Positions 11,220 to 11,400 of a DNA stretch of 64,000 bases are shown in pieces. The notes under the pieces were generated by a model. The model did not search any database and was not told the origin of the DNA. It saw nothing but the letters and a program-made list of their open reading frames with translations. Position 1 is the stretch's first letter; each line of letters begins with the position of its first letter. The stretch lies in assembly GCF_048403405.1 (NCBI RefSeq), contig NZ_CP183129.1; one strand, written 5' to 3'. Made by a program: the position numbers and the translations under genes. Origin of the DNA: Escherichia coli (GTDB lineage Bacteria; Pseudomonadota; Gammaproteobacteria; Enterobacterales; Enterobacteriaceae).

Positions 11220-11400
11220 ACAAAACAGTGCGGGTTATGCGGGTTACCGGGTTATCTTAGCGTGCTAACTATTTTTTGTTCTTTAGTATCAATATGTTGC
11301 AAAATGCACTGTTCATTATTCAAGCATCGCATAACCCGCAAAACATCCCAAATAACCCGCAAACGCCCCAAAATAACCCGCAAACACATTGCTGAAAGCA
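11220..11400. repeat. iteron cluster (GCGGGTTA / TAACCCGC) in inverted sets around an AT-rich spacer
   Basis: gcgggttatgcgggttaccgggttatc at 11225-11250, then ~80 bp AT-rich, then ataacccgcaaa x3 at 11330-11395; same architecture as the site at 21590-21740. Confidence 0.55.

Follow-up and report, generated by a model that had tools for sequence, protein, structure and literature searches.

A distal, mirror-image iteron module in an Escherichia coli PICI-type satellite: a candidate partner of the rep-proximal origin

Virulence and defence genes travel between bacteria on PICI and cf-PICI satellites, which are widespread. The origins of these satellites, and those of the SaPIs, are reportedly treated in the studies of Ubeda et al., Fillol-Salom et al. 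2018 and Qiao et al. 2022. In such an origin, an AT-rich region is flanked by two sets of oppositely oriented iterons (PMC6092414, PMC9371898), each of at least two copies by definition (PMC9371898); the origin is positioned immediately 3′ of rep (PMC6092414, PMC10111431). The Rep protein is a self-loading hexameric helicase, whose C-terminal winged-helix domain reads the iterons (PMC9371898). The experimentally tested Gram-negative PICI replicon, that of EcCICFT073, used only rep and the region just 3′ of it (PMC6092414); since this replicon, perhaps of the "double" type described below, had only that region, a rep-proximal module may suffice in at least some islands. The PICI literature that we examined (including PMC6092414 and PMC10111431) describes a single module after rep and no second one. 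Hence, a distant partner module for a PICI origin appears not to have been described before.

A two-part arrangement is, by contrast, annotated in the satellite P4. In its GenBank record, crr (4291–4590) is located just 3′ of the α gene, beside attP, with ori (9086–9809) 4.7 kb away from it, both being annotated as built of the same 8-bp type-1 repeats. According to what is reportedly found in Flensburg & Calendar 1987, Ziegelin et al. 1993 and Briani et al. 2001, the C-terminal domain of α binds ori as well as crr, replication requires both in cis, and the intervening DNA is looped by α.

Here, we describe an E. coli island that combines a PICI-type origin module next to its rep gene (module P) with a second module made of the same iterons near the opposite island end (module D). 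The island was found in a 64,000-nucleotide stretch of contig NZ_CP183129.1, which as a whole is termed the window hereinafter (Table 1).

Two iteron modules in mirror image

The iteron has an 8-bp core, GCGGGTTA, which extends to 9–11 bp if its conserved flanks are included; a preliminary description had given it as a 9-bp motif. It occurs 16 times in the window as compared to 2.05 ± 1.4 copies expected from dinucleotide-preserving shuffles, and 11 of the 16 copies fall within modules D and P, the other five being isolated. Those five isolated copies would be in keeping with a generic dispersed repeat family, or with chance clustering, but such an explanation is next to negligible: no shuffle reached 16 copies, the bulk of the copies is concentrated in just the two clusters, and D-like sequence is restricted to 299 of 5426 E. 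coli genomes (median of one site in each) and absent from plasmids, which is at odds with REP/ERIC/MITE-like elements. Recurrence at many unrelated genomic sites, which the preliminary description had named as the observation that would speak against its proposal, is accordingly not what the genomes display. The repeats of module D are real and non-random.

In module D, exact copies of GCGGGTTA on the + strand (11230–11237 and 11239–11246) are followed by a third tight copy with one mismatch, CCGGGTTA (11247–11254), at a position where relatives have an exact iteron and hence three exact tight copies. On the other side of the spacer, inverted copies of the form TAACCCGC(AAA) start at 11332, 11353 and 11374. 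The module therefore has two exact and one degenerate iterons on the + strand and three on the − strand around the spacer, so that an AT-rich region is bordered on both sides by at least two opposed iterons, as in the published PICI/SaPI origins; the three-plus-three layout first proposed for the site holds if the degenerate copy is counted. The spacer is strongly conserved in the half adjoining the tight iterons and is among the least stable 30-mers in terms of duplex stability (z = 3.0), with other island segments being even less stable. It also contains an IHF-like consensus, TATCAATATGTTG (11299–11311), which is kept in the D spacers of the GCGGGTTA class and absent from those of the GAACCAAC class, and to which we give no weight as evidence. 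The tight iterons of module D are followed by a tract of the form TTTTG..TATATATA in every iteron class examined by sequence comparison. An Rfam scan of positions 9000–31000 (E ≤ 1) returned nothing relevant.

Module P, at the position expected of a PICI origin just 3′ of the gene for the DUF927 Rep, has + strand iterons at 21610, 21631 and 21652 (21 bp apart) and one more at 21663, a 45-bp spacer with 71% A+T, and two tight inverted iterons (21716 and 21725). In contrast, 10.4 kb separate module D from the rep stop codon. A second copy of the iteron architecture about 10 kb away, as initially noted, is indeed present, but D aligns to the reverse complement of P and is a mirror-image rather than a direct copy, with the two ~10.2–10.4 kb apart and joined by the inverted repeats I1 (53 nt) and I4 (25 nt). 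Together, P and D form a large imperfect palindrome, and the layout seen here (termed split) puts ssb and the cargo at its center. We also considered, and rejected, terminal inverted repeats of a transposon: P is internal and beside rep, there is no transposase, and D is often adjacent to P.

Elsewhere in the window, ORF 46073–49570 (−) contains 20.5 tandem copies of the 6-bp unit TGGATT (47030–47152) encoding an Asn-Pro repeat linker; its 1165-aa product looks autotransporter-like from its translation and the repeat is an ordinary one. The chromosomal LRR gene has, towards its 3′ end, a 9-bp tandem repeat, GAAGCTGGA, with ~4 copies (10578–10613), corresponding to a (K/E)LE-type repeat.

Table 1. 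Coordinates in the window of the two modules and of associated features
Feature	Position	Strand	Basis or remark
Whole island, PICI-type phage satellite, ~19 kb	~10757..29806	-	megablast to E. coli genomes; annotation from L001, L002
Flank of D on the att side	11033..11194	.	~80-87% conserved in split-layout relatives, including L005
Distal module D (candidate origin module)	11195..11400	.	repeat search; kept in L001, L002, L004 and at least 14 IMG/VR loci
TA-tract near-palindrome GCAATTTTTCGTATATATACAAAACAGTGC, att side of tight iterons	11202..11231	.	palindrome I10
Tight iterons of D: two GCGGGTTA and degenerate CCGGGTTA, 9-bp spacing	11230..11254	+	
AT-rich spacer of D, 77 bp	11255..11331	.	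67% A+T measured over 11256-11331
Three iterons TAACCCGCAAA of D, 21 bp apart (two helical turns)	11332..11384	-	repeat families D19 and I1
Intrinsic-terminator-like hairpin ending the cargo operon	12060..12077	-	
Cargo between the two modules	12091..19523	-	
Island-encoded SSB	21124..21546	-	between P and D here; beyond D in "double" relatives
Rep-proximal origin module P	21609..21733	.	matches published PICI ori position (PMC6092414)
Rep, DUF927 primase-helicase, 708 aa	21757..23883	-	Pfam, phrog and PDB profile matches

The island and its Rep protein

The limits of the island are given by its megablast match to the islands at the dinD–yicC site of other genomes, which runs from query base 1744/1757 to 20783/20807. 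Positions 1–10756 of the window are chromosomal (cvrA, ldcA and an LRR-domain gene) and are found in nearly all E. coli; the right flank we take to be dadX/dadA from a reading of the ORF translations. As originally described, module D lies between the LRR gene (9412–10758) and a gene for a secreted protein (12091–12651). The LRR gene, however, does not belong to the element and is not cargo, because positions 1–10756 match the cvrA–ldcA–LRR region of the E. coli chromosome. That the replicon has another iteron site, and that this site is at the cargo end, is borne out: D is ~450 bp inside the island end, within a 1.3-kb non-coding end, and between it and the cargo operon there are ~700 bp without coding sequence and a strong terminator. 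A model in which this 1.3-kb end is a tandem mini-element was rejected, as D abuts P in many relatives. The conserved flank between D and the island end (11033–11229) holds a GGGAT-TTCG-ATCCC hairpin, and one small island, L005, shares this att-side flank despite having a different iteron and a different integrase.

As for the attachment site, only a short GAATCTG is common to the two island junctions (10757 and 29806). A 24-nt direct repeat, ATTATGTACACC..TATGTACACG, is present near both ends (10824–10847 and 29637–29660; 92% identical), and each copy has TATGTACAC twice; these are candidate arm-type binding sites of the integrase. A tRNA scan detected no tRNA genes in the window, so the island does not occupy a tRNA site. 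In other E. coli, islands that are near-identical (99.9%) and share the integrase occupy the dinD–yicC interval, the island of the window being instead between the LRR/cvrA region and dadX, a location that may be a secondary attachment site.

The gene order of the island is int (a tyrosine integrase based on annotated near-identical copies and profile matches), HTH, Rha, AntA, Icd-like, DUF4222, DUF927 Rep, SSB, ProQ/FinO, PerC and cargo. The cargo codes for proteins of 873 aa with an SLT domain (phrog_1044), 565 aa (phrog_3003) and 850 aa (phrog_684), as well as the secreted protein of 186 aa. The three large proteins (12654–19523, − strand) match internal-virion/ejection families of podoviruses, with the best phage matches of the 850-aa protein being at most 49% identical. 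No terminase or par (ParA/ParB) genes were found in the island. It thus displays the PICI/cf-PICI backbone without capsid or terminase genes and with ejection-like proteins in their stead; a satellite supplying its own ejection proteins may represent an undescribed satellite type.

Some RefSeq "hypothetical protein" calls across D are probably spurious. One such call is WP_202622765.1 in L002 (3954–4658, corresponding to ~10710–11410 of the window), the frame of which is interrupted in the window.

The only Pfam domain of Rep is DUF927 (residues 169–436). The protein matches phrog_1139 (E 2e-174) and, in profile searches, the SaPI-type "Pathogenicity island protein" 8tch_A (E 7e-14) and the helicase 5dgk, while BLASTP recovered no detectable similarity to P4 α (best E 0.11). 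An EDL933 locus, presumably the published EcCIEDL933, has a Rep gene that is 87% identical in DNA. Alignment across relatives reveals that the last ~110 residues of Rep switch together with the iteron class: a Rep of the GGGACAAC class is 94% identical to that of the window in its core as against only 29% in the last 110 residues. An AlphaFold model of the last 175 residues, based on an alignment of 20 sequences, had a mean pLDDT of 47, which is too poor to confirm a winged helix.

A different combination of parts is seen in a helper-embedded PICI, L209, whose Rep (12595–14415) has its N-terminal ~140 residues in common with the Rep of the window, fused to a P4 α-like helicase and DNA-binding part that is 51% identical to residues 323–771 of α. 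Just 3′ of this rep gene (12360–12580) are nine P4 type-1 iterons, TGTTCACC. Therefore, P4-type and DUF927-type replication modules have been swapped on the same satellite backbone.

Layouts among relatives and the role of the distal module

The window was compared with seven loci from E. coli and a further 80 from IMG/VR, the latter found with a Rep alignment. In L001, L002 and L004, P and D have the same relative positions as in the window, and the cargo differs among the three: L001 has ejection-protein set 1; L002, a sister island, has at the equivalent position a different trio of large cargo genes (5971–13318) annotated only as hypothetical; and L004 is a cf-PICI with a full capsid and terminase module, inserted in the terL gene of a prophage. 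In L003 (Sakai "prophage Sp7"), which has the same backbone with capsid and terminase, the two modules are adjacent (13663–13970). D likewise abuts P in the same orientation (the "double" layout) in L022, L035, L054, L055, L079 and others, and because it does so in many relatives we read D as part of the origin rather than of the cargo. It is placed either beside P, or 5–16 kb away beyond ssb and the cargo and ~0.3–0.5 kb from the island end, with a constant orientation relative to P in both layouts.

These layouts recur across iterons of different sequence. The GCGGGTTA class comprises 14 split IMG/VR loci, with D 7.7–9.3 kb downstream, and 11 double ones. The GAACCAAC class, with a Rep ~58% identical, has five split loci in IMG/VR (D 5.3–9.7 kb downstream) and two classified as double; L054 of this class is double in the sequence display and just under the count threshold. 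Several loci were classed as single-module where the contig ends before any distal module could show, and a pattern scan placed D 13.2–15.8 kb downstream in four further GAACCAAC loci first scored as single. Distal modules built of GAACCAAC are thus 5.3–15.8 kb from rep in L058, L060, L062, L064, L066, L070, L073, L086 and L087. All loci of the GTGGGTTA, ACGGGTTA and GGGACAAC classes are double, and in the GTGGGTTA and ACGGGTTA variants all copies have changed jointly in both modules. Yet other iterons, GGGACAA in L005, TGAGGCAAC in L006 and TGAGACAAC in L007, each form a double P and D beside rep, and the distal module of L005 (12000–12142), near its far end, is built of GGGACAA/GTCCCA.

In L005, P and an adjacent D (14320–14640) coexist with a distal D whose tight copies are partly degenerate, and this island may represent a step between the double layout and the split one.

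Across several iteron types, the iterons of D always match those beside rep, and they appear specific to the island's own Rep as judged by co-variation, of the iteron class with the last 110 Rep residues and of the two modules with each other. Co-variation of the two sites across related islands, proposed at the outset as a check, is hence clearly positive. The distribution indicates that module D is a feature of the island family and part of its Rep/iteron system.

Pairwise comparison of 12 distinct split-type D modules gave 99.3% identity for the iteron columns, 85.7% for the other columns of the module and 71.5% for its cargo-side flank. This pattern indicates that the iterons of D are kept by selection, and the module is very probably functional. 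A non-functional relic, whether an origin duplicate left by inter-island recombination or the scar of two fused elements, is in our estimate very unlikely. The third tight copy of the window is indeed mutated, and L005 establishes that such modules duplicate and can decay; yet the iteron columns far exceed their surroundings (71–86%) in conservation, and the distal layout recurs across no fewer than three iteron classes and three types of cargo, at a constant orientation and distance from the island end. Further, islands with a distal D are without an adjacent one, as expected if exactly one D is needed (L005 has both). A junction of two fused elements, which had been suggested for the site, also fails to account for a module that is kept in a single orientation whichever of three unrelated types of cargo and of several iteron specificities the island has, and that abuts P elsewhere.

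The same early suggestions included a packaging (cos/pac) or partition site, and the position of D just past the large-terminase gene in the split-layout cf-PICI L004 could be seen as pointing in the former direction. We consider this highly improbable, as D co-varies with Rep, its repeats tracking the Rep C-terminus, and not with terminase genes, which the island of the window lacks; moreover, in double-type relatives the module is beside rep and far from terS/terL. As to partition, no ParA/ParB genes are present.

The TA tract raises the further prospect of a Rep-responsive transcription element, with the tight iterons and the TATATA tract constituting a Rep-controlled promoter or operator. 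This would face ssb and the late operon in double islands, and in split islands would point outward across att, and towards int once the element is circular. Consistent with it, the tract and its place beside the tight iterons are kept in every iteron class, and in double islands it is 10–20 bp upstream of a ribosome-binding site and ATG (in L035, ...tatatatataaattgaggtggcaaATG). Against it, a consensus scan found no sigma-70-like promoter and no −35 element in D, the split layout has no gene on that side before the island end, and the three iterons spaced by 21 bp and the AT-rich spacer would be left unexplained. We accordingly view this as quite unlikely.

In iteron plasmids, Rep proteins are known to pair iteron clusters with one another, and extra clusters are exemplified by incA of P1 and the extra iterons of F, RK2 and R6K. 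By this precedent, Rep bound at D might pair with Rep bound at P, in cis or between copies, and thereby restrain replication ("handcuffing"). D does resemble such a locus in being an extra cluster of the same iterons outside the rep-proximal origin that co-varies with Rep. However, satellites of this type are integrated and then replicate in a burst on induction, leaving stable copy control without obvious use, and the AT-rich spacer and TA tract of D conform to an origin design, whereas classical control loci of the incA type are plain iteron arrays. We regard negative copy control as unlikely. A second origin and handcuffing had both been offered for the site and both are conceivable, but D is better read as a second origin because it has the full iteron/AT-rich/inverted-iteron design of a PICI origin.

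We hence posit that D is probably the second module of a two-part, Rep-bound origin: it would provide a second start site or support P as a crr-like enhancer or partner. Following induction by a helper phage, Rep hexamers would bind D through their C-terminal DNA-binding domain. In one option, Rep would melt the AT-rich spacer or the TA tract of D and replication would start there, making D a second origin. In the other, Rep–Rep contacts would bridge D and P with the cargo looped out; such bridging would rebuild the compact "double" origin in three dimensions and would be akin to the ori/crr pair of P4. A model with one fork per module was rejected by reasoning, as on the circle of a split-layout island two such forks replicate only one arc.

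A stronger version of the two-part origin is possible but doubtful: the family might use an obligatory two-part palindromic origin, the halves of which are separable by 5–16 kb and must be bridged by Rep. In that case, replication may really start at the TA-tract module D instead of the rep-adjacent site of the textbooks. Being inverted relative to each other across the excised circle, the halves could, in addition, drive inversion-based (double rolling-circle) formation of concatemers for packaging.

Were the second module needed, D would have to be part of minimal replicons and engineered satellite vectors and be covered by satellite-finding tools. The split layout would then amount to a natural experiment on the workable distance between the halves of a helicase-loading origin, and the replication of PICIs would be mechanistically tied to the long-unexplained crr requirement of P4. 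D would thus change how PICI replicons are delimited and offer a tractable system for the communication between an origin and its partner, a principle that has precedents.

Comparison with known replication systems

With respect to the PICI/SaPI origins, D shares the opposed iterons around an AT-rich region, the Rep of the island matches the SaPI-type structure 8tch, and the island has the PICI/cf-PICI backbone that includes Sakai Sp7. It departs from them in that the published origin is a single module 3′ of rep, while D is a second one, 10.4 kb from rep at the other island end, and in the added TA-tract palindrome.

P1 incA, F incC and R6K α/β/γ likewise feature extra clusters of Rep-binding repeats far from the main origin, and for such accessory loci of plasmids the expected mechanism is Rep-mediated pairing or looping. 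Unlike D, which has its own AT-rich region and belongs to an integrated satellite replicating in a burst, these serve stable plasmid copy control. The copy-control loci of iteron plasmids thus offer a looser analogy than P4.

The parallel with P4 ori/crr is closer in layout. In both phage satellites, a single 8-bp iteron forms two clusters several kb apart, with copies in either orientation; one cluster is immediately 3′ of the primase-helicase gene and, in the integrated state, one is at the prophage end opposite int, beside att. As with crr, D is a second cluster of the origin's iterons located kilobases away on the same replicon. Unlike P4, the island has a DUF927, SaPI-Rep-like initiator instead of a homolog of α and a different iteron sequence, and D and P are each complete iteron/AT/iteron units that are mirror images of each other and adjacent in many relatives. 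By this analogy, the D/P pair looks like one that works in the manner of P4 ori/crr without belonging to that family.
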